Source: Somniosus microcephalus
Lineage: Eukaryota
DNA length: 64,000 bases
Direction: 5' to 3'
Assembly: GCA_052327205.1 (NCBI GenBank)
Contig: CM126226.1
Location: forward strand, 56,420,001 to 56,484,000
In this document: one piece after another, positions 44,526-64,000 of the stretch
Numbering within the stretch: position 1 is the stretch's first letter
Layout: every line of letters starts with the position of its first letter
Translations under genes and position numbers: made by a program
Notes under the pieces: generated by a model
Database searches by the model: none
Told to the model about the DNA's origin: nothing
The model's input: only the letters and a program-made list of their open reading frames with translations

Positions 44526-45085
44526 GTGCCTTTTGGATTCCTTTAGCTGCAGTTTTAATTGGCCGTTTGTTTCGCTCCTCGGGTTGACATTTTTTGGTTA
44601 TTTTTGTTTGTTGCTTTTCCGTCACCATCTTACTGGGAGCCGCAATTTTGGTTGTAGCAGATTCCGTGGCTGGATATTTCTCCGTCTATTCCTCTTGCAG
44701 GGAGAGATTGGGAGGAGGAGGAAGTGTTTCTGAGGAAGGGGCAGAGGCAGGTGTGATTACACCTGCGGCCTACTGCTCAAACTCCCCCTGAGCTCAGAAG
44801 CTGATTCTATGGGCCAGAAATTGGGCTCCTTTGCGCCTCCCGTTAGCGCCTCTGGGGGGTGGGGGGGGCGGGGCAGGGCGCTAATGAGGCACAAACAGGT
44901 TTGTGACCGGGCGCGGCGATATCAACGCCTCCGCTAAATTCGGCGGGAGGTTTGCGGCGGGGGTAAGACGTTGCGCGCCGATTTCCTGCGCCCGGAGATC
45001 ATGACATCATTGCCGTGCGCAGCGCCCCAGTAGAAAAATTCCCTCTGGTCCCCTGCTTGTGCGCCCGCCGTTATCAACAACAGGT

Positions 45086-47270
45086 AGAGGAGGCGGCCTT
45101 CGGTCGGGTGTCCCTGGAGGAGGCGGCCTTCGGTCGGGTGTCCCCGGGAGGAGGCTCCCTTCGGTCGGGTGTCCCCGGGAGGAGGCGGCCTTCGGTCGGG
45201 TGTCCCCGGGAGGAGGCGGCCTTCGGTCGGGTGTCCCCGGGAGGAGGCGGCCTTCGGTCGAGTGTCCCCGGGAGGAGGCTCCCTTCGGTCGGGTGTCCCC
45301 GGGAGGAGGCGGCCTTCGGTCGGGTGTCCCCGGGAGGAGGCTCCCTTCAGTCGGGTGTCCCCGGGAGGAGGCGGCCTTCGGTCGGGTGTCCCTGGAGGAG
45401 GCGGCCTTCGGTCGAGTGTCCCCGGGAGGAGGCGGCCTTCGGTCGGGTGTCCCCGGGAGGAGGCGGCCTTCGGTCGAGTGTCCCCGGGAGGAGGCTCCCT
45501 TCGGTCGGGTGTCCCCGGGAGGAGGCGGCCTTCGGTCGGGTGTCCCCGGGAGGAGGCTCCCTTCAGTCGGGTGTCCCCGGGAGGAGGCGGCCTTCGGTCG
45601 GGTGCCCCCAGGAGGAGGCTCCCTTCGGTCGGGTGCCCCCAGGAGGAGGCTCCCTTCGGTCGGGTGTCCCCGGGAGGAGGCTCCCTTCGGTCGGGTTTCC
45701 CCGGGAGGAGGCGGCCTTCGGTCGGGTGTCCCCGGGAGGAGGCTCCCTTCGGTCGGGTGCCCCTGGAGGAGGCTCCCTTCGGTCGGGTGTCCCTGGAGGA
45801 GGCTCCCTTCGGTCGAGTGTCCCCGGGGGGAGGCTCCCTTCGGTCGGGTGTCCCTGGAGGAGGCTCCCTTCGGTCGGGTGTCCCTGGAGGAGGCTCCCTT
45901 CGGTCGGGTGTCCCCGGGAGGAGGCTCCCTTCGGTCGGGTGTCCCCGGGAGGAGGCTCCCTTCGGTCGGGTGTCCCAGGAGGAGGCTCCCTTCGGTCGGG
46001 TGTCCCAGGAGGAGGCTCCCTTCGGTCGGGTGTCCCGGGAGGAGGCTCCCTTCGGTCGGGTGTCCCGGGAGGAGGCTCCCTTCGGTCGGATGTCCCCGGG
46101 AGGAGGCTCCCTTCGGTCGGGTGTCCCGGGAGGAGGCTCCCTTCGGTCGGATGTCCCCGGGAGGAGGCTCCCTTCGGTCGAGTGTCCCCGGGAGGAGGCT
46201 CCCTTCGGTCGAGTGTCCCCGGGAGGAGGCTCCCTTCGGTCGGGTGTCCCAGGAGGAGGCTCCCTTCGGTCGAGTGTCCCCGGGAGGAGGCTCCCTTCGG
46301 TCGGGTGTCCCAGGAGGAGGCTCCCTTCGGTCGGGTGTCCCAGGAGGAGGCTCCCTTCGGTCGGGTGTCCCGGGAGGAGGCTCCCTTCAGTCGGGTGTCC
46401 CGGGAGGAGGCTCCCTTCGGTCGGATGTCCCCGGGAGGAGGCTCCCTTCGGTCGGGTGTCCCCGGGAGGAGGCTCCCTTCGGTCGAGTGTCCCCGGGAGG
46501 AGGCTCCCTTCGGTCGAGTGTCCCCGGGAGGAGGCTCCCTTCGGTCGGGTGTCCCCGGGAGGAGGCGGCCTTCGGTCGGGTGTCCCGGGAGGAGGCTCCC
46601 TTCGTTCGGGTGTCCCGGGAGGAGGCTCCCTTCGGTCGGGTTTCCACGGGAGGAGGCGGCCTTCGGTCGGGTGTCCCCGGGAGGAGGCTCCCTTCGGTCG
46701 AGTGTCCCTGGAGGAGGCTCCCTTCGGTCGGGTGTCCCGGGAGGAGGCTCCCTTCGGTCGGGTGTCCCGGGAGGAGGCGGCCTTCGGTCGGGTGTCCCGG
46801 GAGGAGGCTCCCTTCGGTCGGGTGTCCCGGGAGGAGGCGGCCTTCGGTCGGGTGTCCCCGGGAGGAGGCTCCCTTCAGTCGGGTGTCCCCGGGAGGAGGC
46901 TCCCTTCGGTCGGGCACCCCTGGAGGAGGCTCCCTTCGGTCGAGTGTCCCCGGGAGGAGGCGGCCTTCGGTCGAGTGTCCCCGGGAGGAGGCTCCCTTCG
47001 GTCGGGTGTCCCCTGGAGGAGGCTCCCTTCGGTCGGGTTTCCCCGGGAGGAGGCTCCCTTCGGTCGGGTGTTCCCGGGAGGAGGCGGCCTTCGGTTGGGT
47101 GTCCCGGGAGGAGGCTCCCTTCGGTCGGGTTTCCCCGGGAGGAGGCGGCCTTCGGCCGGGTGTCCCCTGGAGGAGGCTCCCTTCGGTCGGGTTTCCCCGG
47201 GAGGAGGCGGCCTTCGGTCGGGTGTCCCCTGGAGGAGGCTCCCTTCGGTCGGAGGGCCCCTGGAGGAGGC
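45086..47270. repeat. GC-rich 30/31-bp minisatellite (GGAGGAGGC(TC/GG)CCTTCGGTCGGGTGTCCC(C)G), about 70 copies
   Basis: Head-to-tail units without spacers. Confidence 0.97.
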
Positions 47271-47993
47271 GGCGCTATTTAAATGCGTCCACATCTGGTT
47301 TAGTTTTCGTTGGCCAACAATGCTGCGTTGTTAGTTTCACATAAGCAAAGAGGTCTTTTGACCGATTTGAGCGTTGAGCGTTTTGTATTTTAACGAGTGT
47401 TCTTGCGCATAACGAATCTTCAGTTTCATTGAGGGGAGATTTGAAAGTGCAATATTTGGATCCTTTCATGGGGGCTGTACTGGCACTGGACCTCGCCCTC
47501 TAGCGTCAACATCAGAGGCAACTGAGGCACAGAGAAAGAGTGCAACATGTGGCCAGAGGGAGGAGGCCTTACCCACCCAGGGTATTCCAGCAGCAGATCT
47601 CCTGCATCAATCTCACTGAGGACCAGTGTGTTAGAAGGCTCCATTTCAGCAAGGATCTGGTCACAGAACTCTGCCACCTCCTGCAGCCAGACCTCGACCC
47701 TGAGATCAGGTCCACCAGGGCTCTCTCAGTGGTAGTCAAGGTCACCGTCCCCCTCAATTTCTACGCCAGTGGATCATTCCAGTGTGCAACAGGCAACATC
47801 TCCAACATCTCCCAGTTTGCCGTCCATTGCCCCATCTGCCAGGTCACAGATGCTCTGTACAGAAGGAGAAGGGACTACATTTCCTTCCCCATGAGCAGAG
47901 AGAAGCAGCGCGAGCGTGCATGTGGCTTTGCCAGGACCACGGGCTTCCCCATGGTGCAGGGCGCCATTGACTGCACTCACATCACTTTGCGCG

Positions 47994-48247
47994 TGTTGTG
48001 TATGTAACCGTTTACCTTTAAGGGAACTATAGAATGTGACCGTTCGCCTTTAAGAGCACTACTTCAGGGTGGCACTATTTATTGGCTCATGTATACTGTA
48101 ATACCGATAGTGACCACACCAGTATATAAGGGTTGTGATACGTTAACTAGGGCAGAAATCGCCCAGACCTCTGAATAGTAAAGACCTGTTTTATTTGTAC
48201 TTCTAAAGTCTCTGAAGTTATTTACTGCACAACCTACAGACTTTACA
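47994..48247 (+). repeat. 5' LTR
   Basis: TGTTGTG...CTTTACA, with TATATAA and AGTAAA signals. Identical by eye to the 3' LTR. Confidence 0.97.
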
Positions 48248-48248
48248 G

Positions 48249-48258
48249 TGGCGACGAG
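48249..48258 (+). promoter_or_regulatory. Primer-binding site, complementary to the tRNA-Ser(GCU) 3' end
   Basis: TGGCGACGAG lies 1 nt after the LTR and complements ...CUCGUCGCCA. Confidence 0.8.
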
Positions 48259-49082
48259 TCCGATCGTACCCTGCGGCAAGACTAGCCAGTAGCAGAGAGC
48301 TTCAAAAAGAAAACACGAGGCTCCGTCTACTAAAAGTATAGTACTTACTGGAAGCTGGAAGATTAACAGCAAAGCTGCGGCAGCAACAGGCACAGATTAC
48401 CCTGCTACCACATCTTGAGCGAGCCAATCAGCCTAAAACAAGGCGGCCGAAGAGACTGTGAGTAGTTAAAACAAATAAATTTAAAAAAACGGGGTAGAAG
48501 TATTTGGAGGAGAAGGGCAAAGCATTCGGGTCCAACGGCGTCGGGTGACAGCCGGACCGCGGGCAATGTGAGAAGCCGTGCAGCAACCGCTGCCACGAAG
48601 CGCTGAGCCTGCGAGTAGGCGCGGGTGTGTCAGAGCCGAGAGCCGCGCGAGCGGGGGAGCCAGAGCCGAGCGGGAGGCGTTGCAAGCCAGCGATCGCATC
48701 TCCAGATAAGGGCCGAGAGCCGCGAGAGCGATCGGATCTACAGATAAGGGCCGGCAGCCGCTTCGCGATCCAGCGATCGCATTATAGATAAGGACCGCAC
48801 TCGGGCTGACAGACGGCGTCGGGGGACCGGGTGAAGACCGCCAAGCGCGGGAAAACCGCCATTGAAGTGGGCGGGGAGAGCGAGAAGCACGGGAAAGCCG
48901 CCATTTTTCGGGGAAAACCGCGGAAGAAGAAGGAAGAAGCGGGAAACCGCCATCTTGGAAATTATTAAGAATTTCAGAAAAGTAATAAGATTTTTCAGAA
49001 AGGCTGGTGTGTTCTTAAGAAGAGAGAAGAAAATTAATAATAAGTAAAGTAATACTTGTACTGTTCTCAAAAAGAGAAGAAG

Positions 49083-50237
49083 ATGCCTAAGCGAGGAAAT
49101 ATTAATGACTTTAATGCAGAAATAGAAGACTGGGCCACGTATGTGGAACGCATAGAAATATATTGCGTAGCCAACGAAATTGAGGATGACAACAAGGCAA
49201 TAACTTTGTTAAATTCGATGGGAGCAAAAACATACGGGCTTTTGAAACATCTAATAGCACCAGTTAAACCAGTGGACCAGACCTTCGAAGAGATCGTAAC
49301 AGTGTTGAAGGATCACTTGAACCCCACACCGTTGATGCTGGCTGAACGATTTAAATTTTACGCCAGAACCCAGAGGCAAGATGAAAGCAATGCGGAATAC
49401 TTAGTCGAACTGCGTAAGCTAGCGAAATACTGCCAGTTTGGAGGGAATTTGACAGAGGCGCTGCGGGACAAGTTCGTATGCGGCTTGGCCAAAGAAGGAA
49501 CGCAGAAGCGACTTCTGGAAGAAAACGACCTCACACTGGACAGGGCTGTCCTCATAGCTTCATCGCACGAAGCCGCAGCGAAAGGGACGGCGGAAATGCA
49601 GCTAAAGGCGGCGGCACTCGGGGTGGACCAAATTACAACAAGCACTCCCAAATGCTACCGTTGTGGAAAGACAACGCACGACCAGAATCAGTGCTGGTTT
49701 AAGAACCAAGAGTGCAGGAAATGTGGCAAACTGGGTCACATCGCGAAGGTATGCAGGTCCGGAAAGAAGACCAACAAGCAAAGGAAGCCACCACCACAAG
49801 GAAAGTACAACAAGGTGCATCAGGTGGCTGAAAAGAGTTCAGACGAACAAAATTCAGACTCAGACCCAAACAGCCAGGAGCTGGATAGTCTGAGAATCCA
49901 CCATGTGGGTAAAGTAACTGATCTACAGTTGATCTGGGTCACACTAAAAATAGCGGGAGTCCAAGTACGAATGGAGCTGGACACGGGATCAGCTGTATCC
50001 GTCATCAACCAAAAGGACTATCACCGGCTATTCTCTCACATACCCTTAAGAAATACCAAATTCGTATTACAGACATACACGGGGCATCATGTATACCCCC
50101 TGGGAAAAATACGAGTCAAGGTGAGAGATAGGGGTAAAGAACACCCACGAATGTATCTGTACGTACTACCTGAGGGAGGACCACCACTTCTGGGATGGGA
50201 GTGGATCAAGAAAATAGACATGGAATGGCACTACTGA
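49083..50237 (+). CDS. gag: Gag-protease polyprotein, Mag-type
   Basis: EDWATYVERIE, ERFKFYARTQ and LRDKFVCGL motifs. Two CCHC knuckles (CYRCGKTTHDQNQC, CRKCGKLGHIAKVC). Protease LDTGSAVS and PLLGWEW. ATG at 49083. Confidence 0.92.
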   Translation: MPKRGNINDFNAEIEDWATYVERIEIYCVANEIEDDNKAITLLNSMGAKTYGLLKHLIAPVKPVDQTFEEIVTVLKDHLNPTPLMLAERFKFYARTQRQDESNAEYLVELRKLAKYCQFGGNLTEALRDKFVCGLAKEGTQKRLLEENDLTLDRAVLIASSHEAAAKGTAEMQLKAAALGVDQITTSTPKCYRCGKTTHDQNQCWFKNQECRKCGKLGHIAKVCRSGKKTNKQRKPPPQGKYNKVHQVAEKSSDEQNSDSDPNSQELDSLRIHHVGKVTDLQLIWVTLKIAGVQVRMELDTGSAVSVINQKDYHRLFSHIPLRNTKFVLQTYTGHHVYPLGKIRVKVRDRGKEHPRMYLYVLPEGGPPLLGWEWIKKIDMEWHY

Positions 50238-50243
50238 CAAGCA

Positions 50244-50594
50244 ATGACGAGTGAGGACTCGGTGCAGACAAGCAGCTCAGACTCCGAGCCGGAAGACGAT
50301 AAGTCCAGCTTATGTATGAAAAACAAGATTAACATGAACTCACGGACTAAGGTTGGGAAATCGATGGCGTGCATAAAGACAGAGAATTCTGAGTCTGTTC
50401 AAGCTACAGACAGATGCATTACGGAGGAACACCGGGCTAGAACTCAACGTTATGTCAAAGTACAACGACAATTAGAACAGTTGAGTGCCCCGTCTCCTAC
50501 AAGAGATGGAAAAGGTGAAAAAGTTCTGGGACACCGAATGGGAGTCCCTGGAAAGACAACAGAGACAGCCCACTCAAGCAGAGAGCGACCATAG
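50244..50594 (+). CDS. Cargo ORF A (unknown), in frame with gag-protease after a single TGA
   Basis: The sequence reads CAC TAC TGA CAA GCA ATG. The ORF overlaps ORF B. Confidence 0.4.
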   Translation: MTSEDSVQTSSSDSEPEDDKSSLCMKNKINMNSRTKVGKSMACIKTENSESVQATDRCITEEHRARTQRYVKVQRQLEQLSAPSPTRDGKGEKVLGHRMGVPGKTTETAHSSRERP

Positions 50595-51198
50595 AGCCAT
50601 CGTGGCCAAGTACCAATCACATCTCCCTGAGGCTGTTCAGGAACTAGAATATACACAGAACGATCCAAAGGAAGAGGAATCTTCAGGAAGTCAGGATGGT
50701 ATTCCAGTTCACCTCTACGACTTGTTGCAAGCAGAGTGTAACGAGTTGAAAGAACAGTATGAACAGGCTCGGACTACAATCCTGGAAGGGGTTAACTTGG
50801 CAACTTCCGAAAAGCTCGTGTTAGTGAAAGAACATGAACGACTAAAGGTTGACCATAAGCAAGAATTACAAAGTCTGCAGGAAATGTTTGATGAGCTTCA
50901 GGCCAAGGCTGACTCATCGTTAGGGATTCAATCCATAGGAAAAAAATTAGTGGTGGAAGACATACCAGAACAGGGAATACAGGATGTCCAAGAACTCGTT
51001 AAATTATTAAAGGAAACACAAAATAAATATGAAGCGGCAATGGCCGAGGTCCAACGACTTGAAGAACAGATGCAACTGGAAATCTTTTCAGTGGAAGAAA
51101 AGGGAACTGTAAGAAACACAGAGACCGTAAGAATGGGCCATGAACATGAGCTTAAATCGTCAGAGGAAGAAGGGTTTGGAGCTCTCAAAAGTTATTGA
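50485..51198 (+). CDS. Cargo ORF B: coiled coil resembling ANKRD24/RAI14/UACA-family segments
   Basis: DHRAIVAKYQSHLPEAVQ, IPVHLYDLLQAECNELKEQY and LKETQNKYEAAMAEVQRLEEQMQL match family motifs recalled from memory; not database-checked. Confidence 0.6.
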   Translation: MPRLLQEMEKVKKFWDTEWESLERQQRQPTQAESDHRAIVAKYQSHLPEAVQELEYTQNDPKEEESSGSQDGIPVHLYDLLQAECNELKEQYEQARTTILEGVNLATSEKLVLVKEHERLKVDHKQELQSLQEMFDELQAKADSSLGIQSIGKKLVVEDIPEQGIQDVQELVKLLKETQNKYEAAMAEVQRLEEQMQLEIFSVEEKGTVRNTETVRMGHEHELKSSEEEGFGALKSY

Positions 51199-51784
51199 AA
51201 TAGCCGAGGTTGCAACACAGACTGAGAAGTTGGCAGCAGAGCAACCCTTAGATACCAAAAGTACGCTGACTCATGTCAAGGTTGAACAACAGAACGCTGA
51301 AACAACTGCTCCGGTAGAGGGATTGAATAGTCCGATCAATCAATCTCCAAAGGAAGTTGAAGTATTAAAATCACAAATGAGGTCATTAGTAAACAACTTG
51401 CTGAAAGCCCAGAAAAAGTTAGAGGAAGCGGAACACGTGAAGAAGTCTCTTCAGGAAAGATGTCTGGATTTGGAACAAAAGCTGGCTGACGTCCAGCTGG
51501 GTAGGGAGGACATAGAAGACCCTCTCGCTGGCCTAGCTCAGGACGACTCCGAATATTACTATGTCCTGTCCTGCCCAACTTGTAACTTCGACTCCCACCA
51601 TACAGAAATCATGGAGGAGCACCGAAAGTCTACGGAACATCGGGAGAAGGTGGCTCTACTACGAAAAAGGAGGAAGAGAAGGAGGAACTGCGCATGCAGC
51701 TGGCAGCTGACAGTGGAGCTCAGAGAGTCTCCAAGAAGCAGAAAAGGAAAAGTCGAAACAGAAGATGACCCATCTGAACCATGA
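51140..51784 (+). CDS. Cargo ORF C: optineurin-like coiled coil, C2H2 (U1/matrin-like) zinc finger and basic NLS
   Basis: EVATQTE...EVEVLKSQMRSLVNNLLKAQKKLEEAEHVKKSLQERCLDLEQK, then CPTC-x12-H-x5-H, then RKRRKRRR. Confidence 0.6.
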   Translation: MNMSLNRQRKKGLELSKVIEIAEVATQTEKLAAEQPLDTKSTLTHVKVEQQNAETTAPVEGLNSPINQSPKEVEVLKSQMRSLVNNLLKAQKKLEEAEHVKKSLQERCLDLEQKLADVQLGREDIEDPLAGLAQDDSEYYYVLSCPTCNFDSHHTEIMEEHRKSTEHREKVALLRKRRKRRRNCACSWQLTVELRESPRSRKGKVETEDDPSEP

Positions 51785-52143
51785 TTACCTCTACCAGATC
51801 ACACACGTGGTCCCTCCGAACGGAGCCAATTCAGTTCGGAAGTTCAAACTGTTAAACCCATGGAAGGACTATTGAATGAGTCACTCCAGCAATGTGAACC
51901 GACTACACCACAGAGACTGAATCTATGAACTGTTTTCCACAGAGACTGAATCTGTGATTTGTTTTGACATGAAGTTATATATGTTATTATGTTATGTTAA
52001 ACATGAAGTTATATGACGTTGACTCCATCGAGAGTATATCTGTAAATTGTTATATGACGTTGACTCCATCGAGAGTATATCTGCAACCTGTTTATATAAA
52101 ATTGAAGATTGTATGTTTAACGGGATTCTGTAAGTAATAAGCT

Positions 52144-52156
52144 AGGAAGGGAGGAG
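52144..52156 (+). promoter_or_regulatory. Polypurine tract
   Basis: AGGAAGGGAGGAG abuts the 3' LTR. Confidence 0.9.
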
Positions 52157-52410
52157 TGTTGTGTATGTAACCGTTTACCTTTAAGGGAACTATAGAATGT
52201 GACCGTTCGCCTTTAAGAGCACTACTTCAGGGTGGCACTATTTATTGGCTCATGTATACTGTAATACCGATAGTGACCACACCAGTATATAAGGGTTGTG
52301 ATACGTTAACTAGGGCAGAAATCGCCCAGACCTCTGAATAGTAAAGACCTGTTTTATTTGTACTTCTAAAGTCTCTGAAGTTATTTACTGCACAACCTAC
52401 AGACTTTACA
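52157..52410 (+). repeat. 3' LTR
   Basis: 254 bp, followed by the TSD GCGCG. Confidence 0.97.
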
Positions 52411-52704
52411 GCGCGCATCTCATAACAATCCTGAGCTATTCCATAACTGCAAAGGCTACCGCTCATGTAATGTGCAGTTGGTATGCGACCACACATGGCG
52501 GATCCTGACCGTCAATGCCCGCTATCCTGGCAGCAGCCACGATGCCTTCATCCTGTGCCAGACCAGCGGGCCAGATCTATTCCAGCCTCCACATGAAGCT
52601 TGCGGCTGGCTGCTGGGAGACGAGGGCTATCCGCTCTCCACCTGGCTCATCACTCCCCTCCTCAACCCCAACACTCCTGGCCAGCACTCATACAATGAGA
52701 GCCA

Positions 52705-53204
52705 NNNNNNNNNNNNNNNNNNNNNNNNNNNNNNNNNNNNNNNNNNNNNNNNNNNNNNNNNNNNNNNNNNNNNNNNNNNNNNNNNNNNNNNNNNNNNNNN
52801 NNNNNNNNNNNNNNNNNNNNNNNNNNNNNNNNNNNNNNNNNNNNNNNNNNNNNNNNNNNNNNNNNNNNNNNNNNNNNNNNNNNNNNNNNNNNNNNNNNNN
52901 NNNNNNNNNNNNNNNNNNNNNNNNNNNNNNNNNNNNNNNNNNNNNNNNNNNNNNNNNNNNNNNNNNNNNNNNNNNNNNNNNNNNNNNNNNNNNNNNNNNN
53001 NNNNNNNNNNNNNNNNNNNNNNNNNNNNNNNNNNNNNNNNNNNNNNNNNNNNNNNNNNNNNNNNNNNNNNNNNNNNNNNNNNNNNNNNNNNNNNNNNNNN
53101 NNNNNNNNNNNNNNNNNNNNNNNNNNNNNNNNNNNNNNNNNNNNNNNNNNNNNNNNNNNNNNNNNNNNNNNNNNNNNNNNNNNNNNNNNNNNNNNNNNNN
53201 NNNN
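52705..53204. other. Assembly gap (500 N)
   Basis: Run of N. Confidence 1.
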
Positions 53205-53768: not shown

Positions 53769-53801
53769 AATAACGCAACTCATAAAAAGACTTCTGTGTT
53801 C

Positions 53802-53958
53802 NNNNNNNNNNNNNNNNNNNNNNNNNNNNNNNNNNNNNNNNNNNNNNNNNNNNNNNNNNNNNNNNNNNNNNNNNNNNNNNNNNNNNNNNNNNNNNNNNNN
53901 NNNNNNNNNNNNNNNNNNNNNNNNNNNNNNNNNNNNNNNNNNNNNNNNNNNNNNNNNN
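53802..53958. other. Assembly gap (157 N)
   Basis: Run of N. Confidence 1.
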
Positions 53959-56012
53959 AGAGAGAGAGGGGGAAGGAGGAGAGAGAGAGAGAGGAAGGAG
54001 GAGAGAGAGAGAGGGGGAAGGGGGAGAGAGAGAGGGGGAAGGAGGAGAGAGAGAGGGGGAAGGAGGAGAGAGAGAGAGGGGGAAGGAGGAGAGAGAGAAG
54101 GAGGAGAGAGAGAGAGGGGGAAGGAGAGAGAGGGGGGGAGGAGAGAGCGAGGGGAAGGAGGAGAGAGAGAGAGAGGAGGAAGGAGGAGAGAGAGAGGGGG
54201 AAGGAGGAGAGAGAGAGGGGGAAGGAGGAGAGAGAGAGTGGGAAGGAGGAGAGAGAGAGAGGGGGAAGGAGGAGAGAGAGAGAGGGGGGAGGAGGAGAGA
54301 GAGAGAGGGGGGAGGAGGAGAGAGAGAGGGGGGAGGAGGAGAGAGAGAGAGGGGAAGGAGGACAGAGAGAGGGGGAAGGAGGAGAGAGAGAGGGGGAAGG
54401 AGGAGAGAGAGGGGGGGAAGGAGGAGAGAGAGAGAGGGGGAAGGAGGAGAGAGAGAGGGGGAAGGAGGAGAGAGAGAGGGGGAAGGAGGAGAGAGAGAGG
54501 GGGGAAGGAGGAGAGAGAGAGAGGGGGAAGGAGGAGAGAGAGAGAGGGAGAAGGAGGAGAGAGAGAGAGAGGGGGAAGGAGGAGAGAGAGAGAGAGGGGG
54601 AAGGAGGAGAGAGAGAAGGAGGAGAGAGAGAGAGGGGGAAGGAGAGGGGGAAGGAGGAGAGAGAGAGTGGGAAGGAGGAGAGAGAGAGGGGGGAAGGAGG
54701 AGAGAGAGAGAGGGGGGAGGAGGAGAGAGAGAGAGGGGGAGGAGGAAGAGAGAGAGGGGGAGGAGGAGAGAGAGAGAGGGGGAAGGAGGACAGAGAGAGG
54801 GGGAAGGAGGAGACGAGAGAGAGGGAGAGAGGGGGGGAAGGAGGAGAGAGAGAGAGGGGAAGGAGGAGAGAGAGAGGGGGAGGAGGAGGAGAGAGAGGGG
54901 GGAAGGAGGAGAGAGAGAGAGGGGGAAGGAGGAGAGAGAGAGAGGGGGAAGGAGGAGAGAGAGAGAGAGGGGGAAGGAGGAGAGAGAGAAGGAGGAGAGA
55001 GAGAGAGGGGGAAGGAGAGAGGGGGAAGGAGAGAGGGGGAAGGAGGAGAGAGAGAGAGAGAGGGGGAAGGAGGAGAGAGAGAGAGAGAGGGGGAAGGAGG
55101 AGAGAGAGAGGGGGAAGGAGGAGAGAGAGAGGGGGAAGGAGGAGAGAGAGGGGGGAAGGAGGAGAGAGAGAGAGGAGGAAGGAGGAGAGAGAGAGAGGGG
55201 GAAGGAGGAGAGAGAGAGAGGGGGAAGGAGGAGAGAGAGAGTGGGGGAAGGAGGAGAGAGAGAGAGAGGGGGAAGGAGGAGAGAGAGAGAGGGGGAAGGA
55301 GGAGAGAGATGGGGGAAGGAGGAGAGAGAGAGGGGGGGAAGGAGGAGAGAGAGAGAGGGGAAGGAGGAGAGAGAGAGGGGGAAGGAGGAGAGAGAGAGGG
55401 GGAAGGAGGAGAGAGAGAGGGGGAAGGAGGAGAGAGAGAAGGGGAAGGAGGAGAGAGAGAGGGGGAAGGAGGAGAGAGAGGGGGGGAAGGAGGAGAGAGA
55501 GAGGGGGAAGGAGGAGAGAGAGAAGGGGAAGGAGGAGAGAGAGAGGGGGAAGGAGGAGAGAGAGAGGGGGAAGGAGGAGAGAGAGAAGGGGAAGGAGGAG
55601 AGAGAGAGGGGGAAGGAGGAGAGAGAGAGGGGGAAGGAGGAGAGAGAGAGGGGGAAGGAGGAGAGAGAGAGAGGGGGAAGGAGGAGAGAGAGAGAGGGGG
55701 AAGGAGGAGAGAGAGAGAGAGGGGGAAGGAGGAGAGAGAGAGAGGGGGAAGGAGGAGAGAGAGAGAAGGGGAAGGAGGAGAGAGAGAAGGGGAAGGAGGA
55801 GAGAGAGAGGGGGAAGGAGGAGAGAGAGAGGGGGAAGGAGGAGAGAGAGAGAGGGGGAAGGAGGAGAGAGAGAGAGGGGGAAGGAGGAGAGAGAGAGAGG
55901 GGGAAGGAGGAGAGAGAGAGAGGGGGAAGGAGGAGAGAGCGAGGGGGAAGGAGGTGAGAGAGAGAGGGGGAAGGAGGAGAGAGAGGGGGAAGGAGGAGAG
56001 AGAGAGAGAGGG
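53959..56012. repeat. GA-rich polypurine repeat (GGGGGAAGGAG(GA)n)
   Basis: About 2 kb of almost pure purine. Confidence 0.97.
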
Positions 56013-57032
56013 TGATCTAAAATGTCACTTTATTTGTATATCTACACTATTTCTGCACATTCTTGTTTTTAAAAGATTGTTTTGAAAGATCAATGAAATC
56101 TGTGAGAAAACAATGATTAAACTTTGAAGGATTAGGTTCCCCTATTGACTCTGATGGCTTCGTTAGCAAATGCACGAAATGAGTTTTACACTGAGCCACA
56201 CGGATCGGGGAGGTATCGGAGATCAATCCCTGTGTTGTGCAGAATGAGTTGATCTCCGTTGCGAAGGGTCAGTCGGCACACTATAGTTAACCTCACAGCC
56301 CCTGAGTTAAATCAGCCTGGTACAATTTGTCGATGTCTGGTCGGGATGTGAGGTCAGGATTGGGCTCCGGAAGGGTGGTGGAAATTTGGAACTCGCTCCC
56401 CCAAAAGGATGTCGATGCTGGGGGCCAATTGAAATTTTCAAGAATGAGACTGATAGATTTTTGTTAGGTATGGGTGTCAATCGATGTGGAACAAGGGCGG
56501 GTAAATAGAGTTGAGGTAAAGATCAGTAATGATCTAATTGAATGGCAGAACAGGCTCGAGGGGCTGAATGGCCTCCTCCTGTTCCTATATTTCTGCAGAT
56601 TAGACTGTGATTCTCCCCATGACTAAGCAGCCTGCCAATACACATGGTCTGGACTCACATGAAGAGCAGTCACTTCAGTAAGGTACCTGTGGAATTGTAT
56701 GTGTGGCAGCGCCATCAGAAGCAAGGGAGGAATCGTGAATAAAAGTTTGGAGAATCTGTAAAGTCATGTGATGCTCCGAGTGGAGCGTTCCATTTTACCA
56801 GACGTCTGAAGGGAGGTGCACAATGATGCAATTGGTGCTGCAATACTATTGGAGCACTGACCACATAGGCAATAGATACTCCTTAAGTTTATTAAAGAGT
56901 GAAGAACTCTTCCTGAAAGTTGTACTGTATTTATGTGCACCGCAGCAATATGATGTAAACTTTCCTATTGATTCTATATAGTTTGAAAGCTGAATTCGAG
57001 AATCAGACTGTATTAGGAACCGAGTCTACCTG

Positions 57033-60904: not shown

Positions 60905-61558
60905 TCAATTTCAATTTCAATTTTTAATGGTCACATAACTAAATACAAGAAGTGTAATCTAGTCAGTGAAATGTTTTTTTCTTGAGGAGCCGAGAGCACC
61001 AAGCAGCAAGAACACTGCGCTGCCTGGTACGCACGGAGCTCGCAAGGACGGCAGCCATCTTCATCGGCGCCATCACAAAAAAACACAGACCGACATATAC
61101 ACGCATACATACTTAAAATATAAATAAAGCAGACATAAAATAAATAAAAGACATAAAAAGACAGTACATAAAATGAACAAGCAATAATGTAAAGAAAAGT
61201 AATTTCTACAGTAATTACATTGATATTTCTACCCAGGCTTCTAGAATAATCTCTGGTTACAGGGTGGCCGCACTGGGAGAGCAACTTATAATTAAATAAA
61301 TTTAATTAATTAATTAATTAATTAATAAAATTAAATAAATAAAGTGCCCCCTCAGTCTTTCTTGATGTTTCCATCTTGGTCTCTCTCGATGTTTCCCCTC
61401 TCTCTCTCTCGATGTTTCATCTGTCTTTCTCGATGTTTCCTCTGTCTTTCTCGATGTTTCCTCTCAGTTTTTCTCGATGTTTCCCCTCGGTTTCTTCCAC
61501 ACACCTGGCCTGCACATTACTCTGGCTGTCCAACTTGGCGTCCTGGTAACCGGGTTCC

Positions 61559-63683
61559 GCTCCAGCTCTCATCCTTCAAACTGTCTCTCCAGCTCTCATC
61601 CTTCAAACTGTCTCTCCAGCTCTTGACCTTCAAACTGTCACTCCAGCTCTCGTCTTTCAAACTGTCTCTCCAGCTCTCGACCTTCAAACTGCCTCTCCAG
61701 CTCTCGACCTTCAAACTGTCTCTCCAGCTCTCGACCTTCAAACTGTCTCTCCAGCTCTTGAGCTTCAAACTGTCACTCCAGCTCTCGTCTTTCAAACTGT
61801 CTCTCCAGCTCTCGACCTTCAAACTGTCTCTCCAGCTCTCATCCTTCAAACTGCCTCTCCAGCTCTCGACCTTCAAACTGTCTCTCCAGCTCTCATCCTT
61901 CAAACTGTCTCTCCAGCTCTCATCCTTCAAACTGTCTCTCCAGCTCTTGACCTTCAAACTGTCACTCCAGCTCTCGTCTTTCAAACTGTCTCTCCAGCTC
62001 TCGACCTTCAAACTGCCTCTCCAGCTCTCAACCTTCAAACTGTCTCTCCAGCTCTCATCCTTCAAACTGTCTCCCCAGCTCTTGACCTTCAAACTGTCAC
62101 TCCAGCTCTCGTCTTTCAAACTGTCTCTCCAGCTCTCGACCTTCAAACTGTCTCTCCAGCTCTCATCCTTCAAACTGTCTCTCCAGCTCTTGACCTTCAA
62201 ACTGTCACTCCAGCTCTCGACCTTCAAACTGTCTCTCCAGCTCTCGACCTTCAAACTGTCACTCCAGCTCTCGACCTTCAAACTGTCTCTCCAGCTCTCG
62301 ACCTTCAAACTGTCTCTCCAGCTCTCGACCTTCAAACTGTCTCTCCAGCTCTCGACCTTCAAACTGTCTCTCCAGCTCTCGACCTTCAAACTGCTCTCTC
62401 CAGCTCTCGACCTTCAAACTGTCTCTCCAGCTCTCGACCTTCAAACTGTCACTCCAGCTCTCGACCTTCAAACTGTCACTCCAGCTCTCGACCTTCAAAC
62501 TGTCTCTCCAGCTCTCGACCTTCAAACTGTCACTCCAGCTCTTGACCTTCAAACTGTCTCTCCAGCTCTCGACCTTCAAACTGTCACTCCAGCTCTTGAC
62601 CTTCAAACTGTCTCTCCAGCTCTCGACTTTCAAACTGTCTCTCCAGCTCTCGACCTTCAAACTGTCTCTCCAGCTCTCGACCTTCAAACTGTCTCTCCAG
62701 CTCTCGACCTTCAAACTGTCACTCCAGCTCTCGACCTTCAAACTGCCTCTCCAGCTCTCGACCTTCAAACTGACTCTCCAGCTCTCGACCTTCAAACTGT
62801 CACTCCAGCTCTCGACCTTCAAACTGTCTCTCCAGCTCTCGACCTTCAAACAGTCACTCCAGCTCTTGACCTTCAAACTGTCTCACCAGCTCTCGACCTT
62901 CAAACTGAGTCTCCAGCTCTCGACCTTCAAACTGTCTCTCCAGCTCTCGACCTTCAAACTGTCACTCCAGCTCTCGACCTTCAAAATGCCTCTCCAGCTC
63001 TCGACCTTCAAACTGTCTCTCCAGCTCTCGACCTTCAAACTGTCTCTCCAGCTCTCAACCTTCAAACTGTCTCTCCAGCCCTCGACCTTCAAACTGTCAC
63101 TCCAGCTCTCAACCTTCAAACTGTCACTCCAGCTCTCGACCTTCAAACTGTCTCTCCAGCTCTCGACCTTCAAACTGACTCTCCAGCTCTCGACCTTCAA
63201 ACTGTCACTCCAGCTCTCGACCTTCAAACTGTCTCTCCAGCTCTCGACCTTCAAACTGTCACTCCAGCTCTTGACCTTCAAACTGTCACTCCAGCTCTCG
63301 ACCTTCAAACTGTCTCTCCAGCTCTCGACCTTCAAACTGTCACTCCAGCTCTCGACCTTCAAACTGTCTCTCCAGCTCTCGACCTTCAAACTGACTCTCC
63401 AGCTCTCGACCTTCAAACTGTCTCTCCAGCTCTCATCCTTCAAACTGTCTCTCCAGCTCTCGACCTTCAAACTGTCACTCCAGCTCTCGACCTTCAAACT
63501 GTCATTCCAGCTCTCGACCTTCAAACTGTCACTCCAGCTCTCGACCTTCAAACTGTCTCTCCAGCTCGCGACCTTCAAACTGTCTCTCCAGCTCTCGACC
63601 TTCAAACTGTCACTCCAGCTCTCGACCTTCAAACTGTCTCTCCAGCTCTCATCCTTCAAACTGTCACTCCAGCTCTCGACCTT
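61559..63683. repeat. 27-bp minisatellite (CTCCAGCTCTCGACCTTCAAACTGTC(T/A)), about 78 copies
   Basis: Head-to-tail units. Confidence 0.97.
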
Positions 63684-64000
63684 GAACAGATAAAGCTAGG
63701 CTGACACTCCAGTGCAGTACTGAGGGAGTGCTGCACTGTCGGAGGTGCTGTCTTTCGGATGAGTCTTTAAACCGAGGCCCCGTCTGCTCTCTCAGGTGGA
63801 TGTAAAAGATCCCATGGCACTATTTCAAAGAAGAGCAGGGGAGTTCCCCCCAGTGTCCTGGCCAATATTTATCCCTCAATCAACATCACAAAAAAAAACA
63901 GGTTATCTGGTCATTATCGCATTGCTGTTTGTGGGAGCTTGCTGTGCACAAATTGGCTGCTGCATTTTCTACATTACAACAGTGACTACACCCCAAAAAG
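63681..64000 (+). mobile_element. DeuSINE body, runs off the window end
   Basis: Deu core matches the other copies. Confidence 0.88.

Follow-up and report, generated by a model that had tools for sequence, protein, structure and literature searches.

An optineurin-derived segment in the shark Somniosus microcephalus belongs to the mosaic host cargo of a young, high-copy Ty3/gypsy element

The LTR element and its surroundings

The DNA analysed here (the window) is a stretch of 64,000 nucleotides from Somniosus microcephalus (assembly GCA_052327205.1, contig CM126226.1, positions 56,420,001 to 56,484,000, forward strand). It contains a young Ty3/gypsy LTR element (47994-52410) with identical LTRs, which encloses a segment derived from optineurin (OPTN) and whose anatomy can be read directly (Table 1). 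The element is inserted into Harbinger-type transposase sequence (47540-47993 and 52411-52705), the reading of which resumes across the insertion. Target-site duplications of 5 bases are also found in all 11 sister copies with parsable ends (13 examined), and the window copy is 99.5% identical to a sister copy, L043. Elsewhere in the window, long tandem or low-complexity repeats (31-nt, GA-rich and 21-nt units) at 45000-47320, 53800-56100 and 61400-63700 generate spurious long ORFs. An Rfam search over 47900-52500 gave no match.

We looked after the protease of the window element for reverse transcriptase (RT), RNase H and an integrase core, and all three are absent. In a sample of 40 copies (the first 40, in chromosome order, of 100 listed matches to a spliced OPTN junction, see below), RT and integrase are absent between the LTRs of 39, and the remaining copy has an RT/integrase match after its cargo. 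In relatives whose Gag-protease is 57-70% identical, RT, RNase H and integrase occupy, in this order, the position of the cargo, and the cargo region ends in sequence that matches the integrase tail of these relatives. The initial annotation had placed the OPTN-like segment in a "cargo ORF C" (51140-51784). The segment is indeed cargo that an LTR element took from OPTN. ORF C, however, is no separate gene: it exists because of the stop at the protease end and of three frame breaks in the tail of the window copy.

Table 1. Features of the element and of its borders in the window
Feature	Position	Strand	Remark
Target-site duplication, 5 bases	47989..47993 left, 52411-52415 right	.	sequence
5' LTR, 254 nt, TG...CA ends	47994..48247	+	identical to 3' LTR
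Primer-binding-site-like TGG element directly after the LTR	48249..48259	+	sequence
Gag (retrotransposon gag, zinc knuckle) and aspartyl protease	49083..50237	+	frame stops at protease end here
Linker, then SLK/STK10 coiled-coil (PKK domain) piece	50249..50569	+	75-77% nt identity to L101/L141
Pieces of the ankyrin-repeat/coiled-coil gene (C13)	50566..51152	+	back-splice-type junction at about 50641
OPTN piece: end of exon 5, exons 6 and 7, beginning of exon 8	51140..51513	+	
TQT motif, from OPTN	51215..51223	+	
DNAJC21 piece: C2H2 zinc finger, acidic helix, K/R cluster	51503..51760	+	most copies' frames end at the cluster
Integrase C-terminal tail remnant	51760..51930	+	resembles ends of autonomous relatives
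Polypurine tract	52140..52156	+	
3' LTR	52157..52410	+	
Flank, outside the element: Harbinger-type DDE transposase	52418..52702	+	Pfam DDE_Tnp_4 E 1.7e-13

Origin of the OPTN segment

The alignment to OPTN proposed in the initial annotation was borne out, in the same frame, with EVATQTE at 51206-51226 and the 43-residue helix at 51353-51481. When ORF C residues 8-175 were compared with longer proteins, OPTN was the best match: among 1,197 candidates, 14 proteins matched, all of them with the OPTN domain set, all from sharks or rays, and with E values far beyond chance (best E 5e-34, 71% identity). In pairwise alignment, 85 of 120 positions are identical between ORF C and residues 265-384 of a 667-aa OPTN. 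A near-length protein search with ORF C, restricted to lengths 117-375, gave no match, and PDB and Pfam searches on ORF B and ORF C returned nothing significant and nothing above cut-off, respectively. A profile search against 1.84 billion representatives returned four matches. Two are OPTN proteins, one from a shark and one from a fish, the third is an OPTN-like fragment without a name, and the fourth, a DNAJC21-like protein, covers ORF C residues 125-197.

Two genes of the shark genome contain a NEMO domain, and the one on C17 is OPTN. Its best PDB match is optineurin, CC2-LZ exons lie downstream, and the 14 coding exons mapped span a shark OPTN end to end. Positions 51171-51513 of the window correspond to exons 6, 7, and the start of exon 8 of this host gene (81%, 87%, and 89% nucleotide identity), exon 6 having lost 21 nt in frame, while introns of 2.0 and 2.5 kb are absent. 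Since these exons match host OPTN without its introns, the piece is a captured spliced mRNA of the host lineage; judged by sequence comparison, the OPTN-like stretch is a real spliced piece of the shark's own optineurin mRNA. The window-type piece is devoid of the N-terminal TBK1-binding coil, the LIR-like site, the ubiquitin-binding CC2-LZ coil, and the zinc finger of OPTN. Sister families carry a longer OPTN piece, about 96-98% identical to the host, but even the longest captures reach only from part of exon 3 to exon 8. The LIR-like site is retained in these longer captures; the piece shrank over time and the commonest types are without the site.

The host OPTN reference (C17, L056:700-1400) reads TPT where the elements read TQT, and additional single bases, which would put it out of frame, stand close to the border of exons 5 and 6. 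A loss of TQT in host OPTN was our first reading, but a local reference error seems likelier: all 26 RNA reads give glutamine at the middle codon, and at this place several single-base gaps separate one DNA contig from the reference; element and host reads are indistinguishable at this codon, and proline is present in three element copies.

A mosaic of host pieces

OPTN is one of four or more host pieces in the element, which the initial annotation had not noticed. In the window copy, the order is linker, SLK/STK10 coiled coil, ankyrin/coiled-coil gene, OPTN, DNAJC21, and integrase tail. The SLK/STK10 assignment is based on less diverged sisters, L101 and L141, in which Pfam recognizes PKK at E about 1e-23, and it is to that extent a putative one for the window copy. 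The identity of the DNAJC21 piece comes from sequence searches, including the DNAJC21-like profile match. The third donor was traced through a host exon that has AG before it and GT after it; the exon belongs to a gene on C13 with an ankyrin exon upstream, possibly ANKRD24-like; an ESM Atlas search with ORF B and the large exon of this host gene returned generic coiled-coil clusters only, and no gene name.

The order of the pieces of the C13 gene is reversed: 9 nt from the end of exon n+1 and the complete 66-nt exon n+2 come before the upstream exon n, which enters with its first base, and the junction falls at exact exon ends on both sides, donor and acceptor. In the available text of a study of circRNA-derived pseudogenes (PMC4897178), a reversed junction at exact exon ends is the signature of back-spliced RNA. 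The candidate preceding exon has only CAG in common with the end of the late exon, which makes switching of templates on a linear mRNA the less likely origin. From this arrangement, the reversed piece was probably taken from a circular RNA. The window-type form of the junction has 491 matches in the genome. At both junctions that were read, from the ankyrin gene to OPTN and from OPTN to DNAJC21, a short in-phase shared sequence is present; short shared sequence at switch points belongs to the template-switch model as described in the parts of PMC5131818 consulted.

Copy number and sister families

A 25-base sequence that spans the junction of the spliced OPTN exons 7 and 8 occurs 7,821 times in the genome with at most one mismatch, while the control has no match. 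Candidate copies of the element number in the tens of thousands. All 40 sampled copies present the order gag, protease, SLK, OPTN, and in 34 of them the LTR pairs (235-268 nt) are 98-100% identical, the range across the copies examined being 96-100%. Random disruption of the frame among copies, a point raised at the outset, is not what the copies show: the frame is open from Gag to OPTN in 34 of the 40 position-ordered copies. About 124 of the best 150 matches to ORF C lie within frames of at least 772 aa (hand count), and the 20 copies fetched whole have a single Gag-protease-cargo frame of about 760-1,050 aa.

Cargo differs between sister families. Some have longer SLK pieces. EVI5 coiled-coil pieces are inserted at the back-splice-type junction in L037, L192, L210, and L218 (the top 120 matches of the EVI5 piece are EVI5 or EVI5-like, with three unnamed or hypothetical). 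Three or more titin-like Ig domains follow the SLK piece in L091-L102, L108, and L110 (Pfam I-set E 4e-34; best PDB match titin), and a myosin-tail-like coiled coil, which we take to be cingulin-like, lies inside the SLK piece of L142-L148 (Pfam Myosin_tail_1 E 1e-14). The OPTN-free sister families with other cargo are young too and have long open frames. In L104 and L105, there is an additional inserted piece, presumably BAZ1A-like, in which Pfam found nothing; in L091, L093, L095, and L099, an extra zinc finger straight after the protease weakly matches the autophagy-receptor C2H2 family (E 0.002, under cut-off).

Among the relatives with enzymes, h2_74k (C13:62773000-62779000) bears RT and integrase and groups inside the Gag-protease clade of the cargo elements; from this grouping, the L034/L036 types may have exchanged sequence with it or may be helped by it. 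The L064:6615-8906 family is a very abundant autonomous relative, with at least 150 scored matches that are 98-100% identical over 201 aa; frames of at least 1,300 aa occur in only 7 of its best 150 matches. Two candidate links were rejected. Intronless RAD51 copies are not cargo of the OPTN-bearing family (none of the three intronless loci matches the element), and L079, the only full-length PKK match, is not an element copy, as it does not match the element; its PKK domain is complete, has no introns, lies in a 277-aa frame and is surrounded by LINE sequence, and it is probably an ordinary retrocopy.

The open frame and its basic end

In 36 of the 40 copies, the frame ends with at least seven K/R in its last 15 residues, against none of 995 internal windows. 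The window-type basic end is the K/R cluster from DNAJC21 with the stop directly behind. Other families have reached a basic end by a second route, an integrase tail turned arginine-rich, which is found in 27 of 53 other loci; many of the remaining loci of the 53 are broken or clipped by the locus edge. In L103, L107, and L109, the frame ends in an unmodified, less basic integrase tail. The net charge of the tails is -24 to -33 and that of the ends +6 to +9. Integrase tails bind RNA or aid nuclear import. An open frame with a basic end is directly observed in most copies.

Across about ten cargo layouts, no junction or deletion that we saw departs from the donor frame, many of the copies behind this observation having been chosen for long frames. 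The window-type cargo is 11-19% diverged from the host exons and has two gaps summing to 21 nt; its lineage has accumulated 125 substitutions relative to these exons with no stop (P about 0.002). The same no-stop test gave P 0.06-0.19 in three other lineages and is therefore significant for the window type only.

Selection on Gag-protease and on cargo

To measure constraint along the frame, changes shared by several copies were tallied against private ones; the tally ignores the tree and includes copies partly found by protein score. It gave 0.24-0.29 for gag and 0.36-0.43 for protease (p below 1e-3), 0.9-1.2 for SLK, and 1.4-1.7 for DNAJC21. For OPTN exons 6-8, it gave 0.59 (p 0.03) in 144 loci, as one of seven modules tested, and 0.73 (p 0.24) in the 40 position-ordered copies. 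In a 63-copy clade, the values were 0.40-0.48 for Gag-protease and 0.8-1.0 for the pooled cargo (p 0.29-1). An earlier set for the tally comprised 104 loci. Compared with the host genes, the two codons at the doubtful host OPTN site being excluded, window-type OPTN has a dN/dS of 0.29 uncorrected and of about 0.5 (p 0.02-0.06) after transition correction, and the ankyrin-gene exon 0.76 after the same correction (p 0.14).

By these tallies, Gag and protease are under purifying selection, and cargo residues appear weakly constrained at most. As h2_74k falls within the clade of cargo elements in Gag-protease, exchange with autonomous lineages may account for some of the signal in this part. Of the 23 columns of the DNAJC21 finger, 12 are variable, but the four zinc ligands never change. 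Positive selection on this finger was considered on the basis of 3.75 synonymous versus 23.25 nonsynonymous shared steps and was rejected, the module not being significant (p 0.37).

Transcription of the family

The element is transcribed at the level of the family: RNA reads on it are not copy-specific. In two raw RNA runs, 8,899 of 16.7 million and 7,286 of 14.4 million records fall on the element at 93% identity or more, and reads span all of its 30 bins. A sense bias is strong in X7 (532 vs. 19 over the OPTN helix) and weaker in X8. In X7, depth is about 340 on the element against 7 at the host-only end of OPTN exon 8, edge effects included, and element reads appear to outnumber host OPTN reads. 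In contigs of runs X2 and X3, labelled as two further organisms, all 30 element bins are covered at 93% or more.

A model for the cargo elements

We consider it rather probable, on what the sequences suggest, that these are non-autonomous Ty3/gypsy elements likely borrowing the enzymes of relatives, in which the host pieces likely serve as an exchangeable, acidic, soluble spacer to a basic tail. The element RNA would be packaged together with host RNAs in particles containing the RT and integrase of a relative, and template switching by RT at short matches, from element RNA to a co-packaged host RNA, would swap the cargo; one capture probably used a circular RNA as template. Lineages would survive when the frame stays open to the basic end, which may bind RNA or aid nuclear import, and a short 3' untranslated region could add some protection from nonsense-mediated decay. 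The spread of the elements would depend on a putative helper, provided by intact relatives.

Alternative explanations

The OPTN piece could instead be functional, its TQT motif recruiting LC8 as a dimer hub or its coiled coil acting as a decoy for OPTN-dependent autophagy or innate sensing of particles. The initial annotation had read TQT as an LC8/DYNLL anchor and had speculated on a decoy or a trafficking aid. The context of the motif (E at -4, V at -3, A at -2, and E at +2) fits LC8 preferences, the favoured flanks being described in PMC6607443, where OPTN goes unmentioned in the text available, and TQT is kept in 63 of 68 loci and in 39 of the 40 position-ordered copies while adjacent residues vary between subfamilies. 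However, it is not specially conserved, since 64 of 108 columns are equally invariant and the proline within the motif is common to three copies. TQT is found in 7 of 10 shark or ray OPTNs (one per species, from the 14 matches), and it was therefore inherited from OPTN; a literature search turned up no paper joining OPTN, LC8, and TQT. The weak constraint on exons 6-8, the number of copies with OPTN pieces (at least 7,821), the LIR-like site kept in longer captures, and the apparent excess of element reads over host OPTN reads speak for such a function. Against it stand the shrinkage of the piece with loss of the LIR-like site from the commonest types, and the youth and openness of OPTN-free families with titin-like, myosin-tail-like, or other cargo. 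With an inherited motif, weak constraint, missing OPTN domains, and young OPTN-free families, we do not retain the OPTN piece or its TQT as a selected decoy or trafficking aid, and find a function of this kind unlikely. Binding of LC8 by the element peptide is plausible from its sequence, but is unneeded to explain the data.

Two other explanations do without a useful cargo protein. Selection could act on RNA only: the long frame would put the stop near the 3' LTR (about 75-530 nt before it in the copies measured) and so spare the transcript from nonsense-mediated decay, while the protein made from the tail would be of no use. Cargo residues that are near neutral fit this, but the two unrelated sequences ending in a K/R cluster and the kept zinc ligands are left unexplained, and the window-type lineage has shifted its stop upstream, giving a longer untranslated part; we judge this explanation improbable. 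Alternatively, the cargo could be neutral baggage, captured in frame through in-phase matches of E/K/Q/L-rich coding sequences, with frames that are open by youth only. The shared in-phase sequence at the two junctions examined and the near-identical LTR pairs are as expected on this account, and 14 of 17 young LTR retrocopies of Drosophila are in frame in the consulted parts of PMC5131818. It is nonetheless hard to reconcile with a window-type cargo that is well diverged from the host exons and still stop-free, with a donor frame kept at every junction and deletion in about ten layouts (even if many copies were picked for long frames), and with convergent basic ends, and we regard it as very unlikely.

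The exchangeable spacer with a basic tail thus remains the reading that we prefer. In a bolder version, which we put forward tentatively and consider possible but doubtful, the family would be a vertebrate radiation with continuous exon shuffling: in thousands of helper-dependent elements, Pol would have given way to a changing series of host coiled-coil, Ig, and zinc-finger pieces, one of them from a circular RNA, behind Gag-protease. A selected basic end would allow the element RNA to out-compete that of its helper, transcripts would exceed host OPTN mRNA, and the published shark OPTN "retrogene duplications" would be cargo.

Relation to known systems

Defective transducing retroviruses are helper-dependent and carry gag-onc fusions, where a host mRNA has taken the place of pol and continues the frame of gag. 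The shark element differs from them in being a Ty3/gypsy element without env, in its many donors, and in showing no sign that the cargo's own activity is selected.

LTR elements that capture spliced mRNAs, multi-gene chimeras, and circRNA retrocopies are all known from the available parts of several studies (PMC4897178, PMC5131818, PMC7264820, PMC3597677). As far as the text of Tan et al. 2016 (PMC5131818) was available, animal LTR-mediated retrocopies are alike in that a partial spliced mRNA replaces internal ORFs, with shared sequence at switch points, several parent genes per locus, co-transcription, and further non-autonomous cycles. These sets count from a few to 15 loci per species, the older ones mostly disabled, whereas the shark radiation comprises thousands of young copies; moreover, the shark element keeps a selected Gag-protease in frame with its cargo and swaps this cargo repeatedly. 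Maize Bs1 (PMC5131818, PMC7264820) is likewise an LTR element, and its chimeric frame combines parts of three host genes, but it is a plant element with one piece out of frame, and the consulted parts of these sources describe no comparable copy number or cargo turnover for it. The circRNA-derived pseudogenes of Dong et al. 2016 (PMC4897178) share the reversed exon-exon junction at exact exon ends and, for the mouse circRFWD2 copies, the LTR association; in the shark, by comparison with the portion of that work available, the junction lies in frame inside the predicted polyprotein of an element and in at least 491 copies.

In sharks, a preprint (10.1101/2024.09.09.611499) reports single-exon OPTN copies flanked by LTR or LINE sequence, together with LTR expansion in a large genome. 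Its available text treats them as duplicated retrogenes, and the Gag fusion, the mosaic, the copy number, and the family are not described there; the available text of a second shark preprint (10.1101/2025.06.08.657570) has no passage on single-exon OPTN retrogene copies. Searches of open-access literature listings turned up no shark family that combines a high copy number with a mosaic of Gag-protease and host pieces. Capture by template switching is known; the present scale and the frame-keeping were not found in print.

Implications

These elements amount to a large natural experiment on the reasons for which a non-autonomous LTR element maintains a long frame. One genome contains the donor genes, many cargo layouts, and young copies by the thousand, and selection on frame, on amino acids, and at the RNA level can therefore be separated computationally. 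As a genomic fossil, the reversed junction also suggests the entry of circular RNAs into retrotransposon particles. In such genomes, intronless OPTN, SLK, EVI5, DNAJC21, or titin-like "gene copies" may be transposon cargo, as may part of their RNA-seq signal. This bears on claims of gene duplication in sharks: if true, the published OPTN "retrogene duplications" would be cargo of the element and not new host genes.
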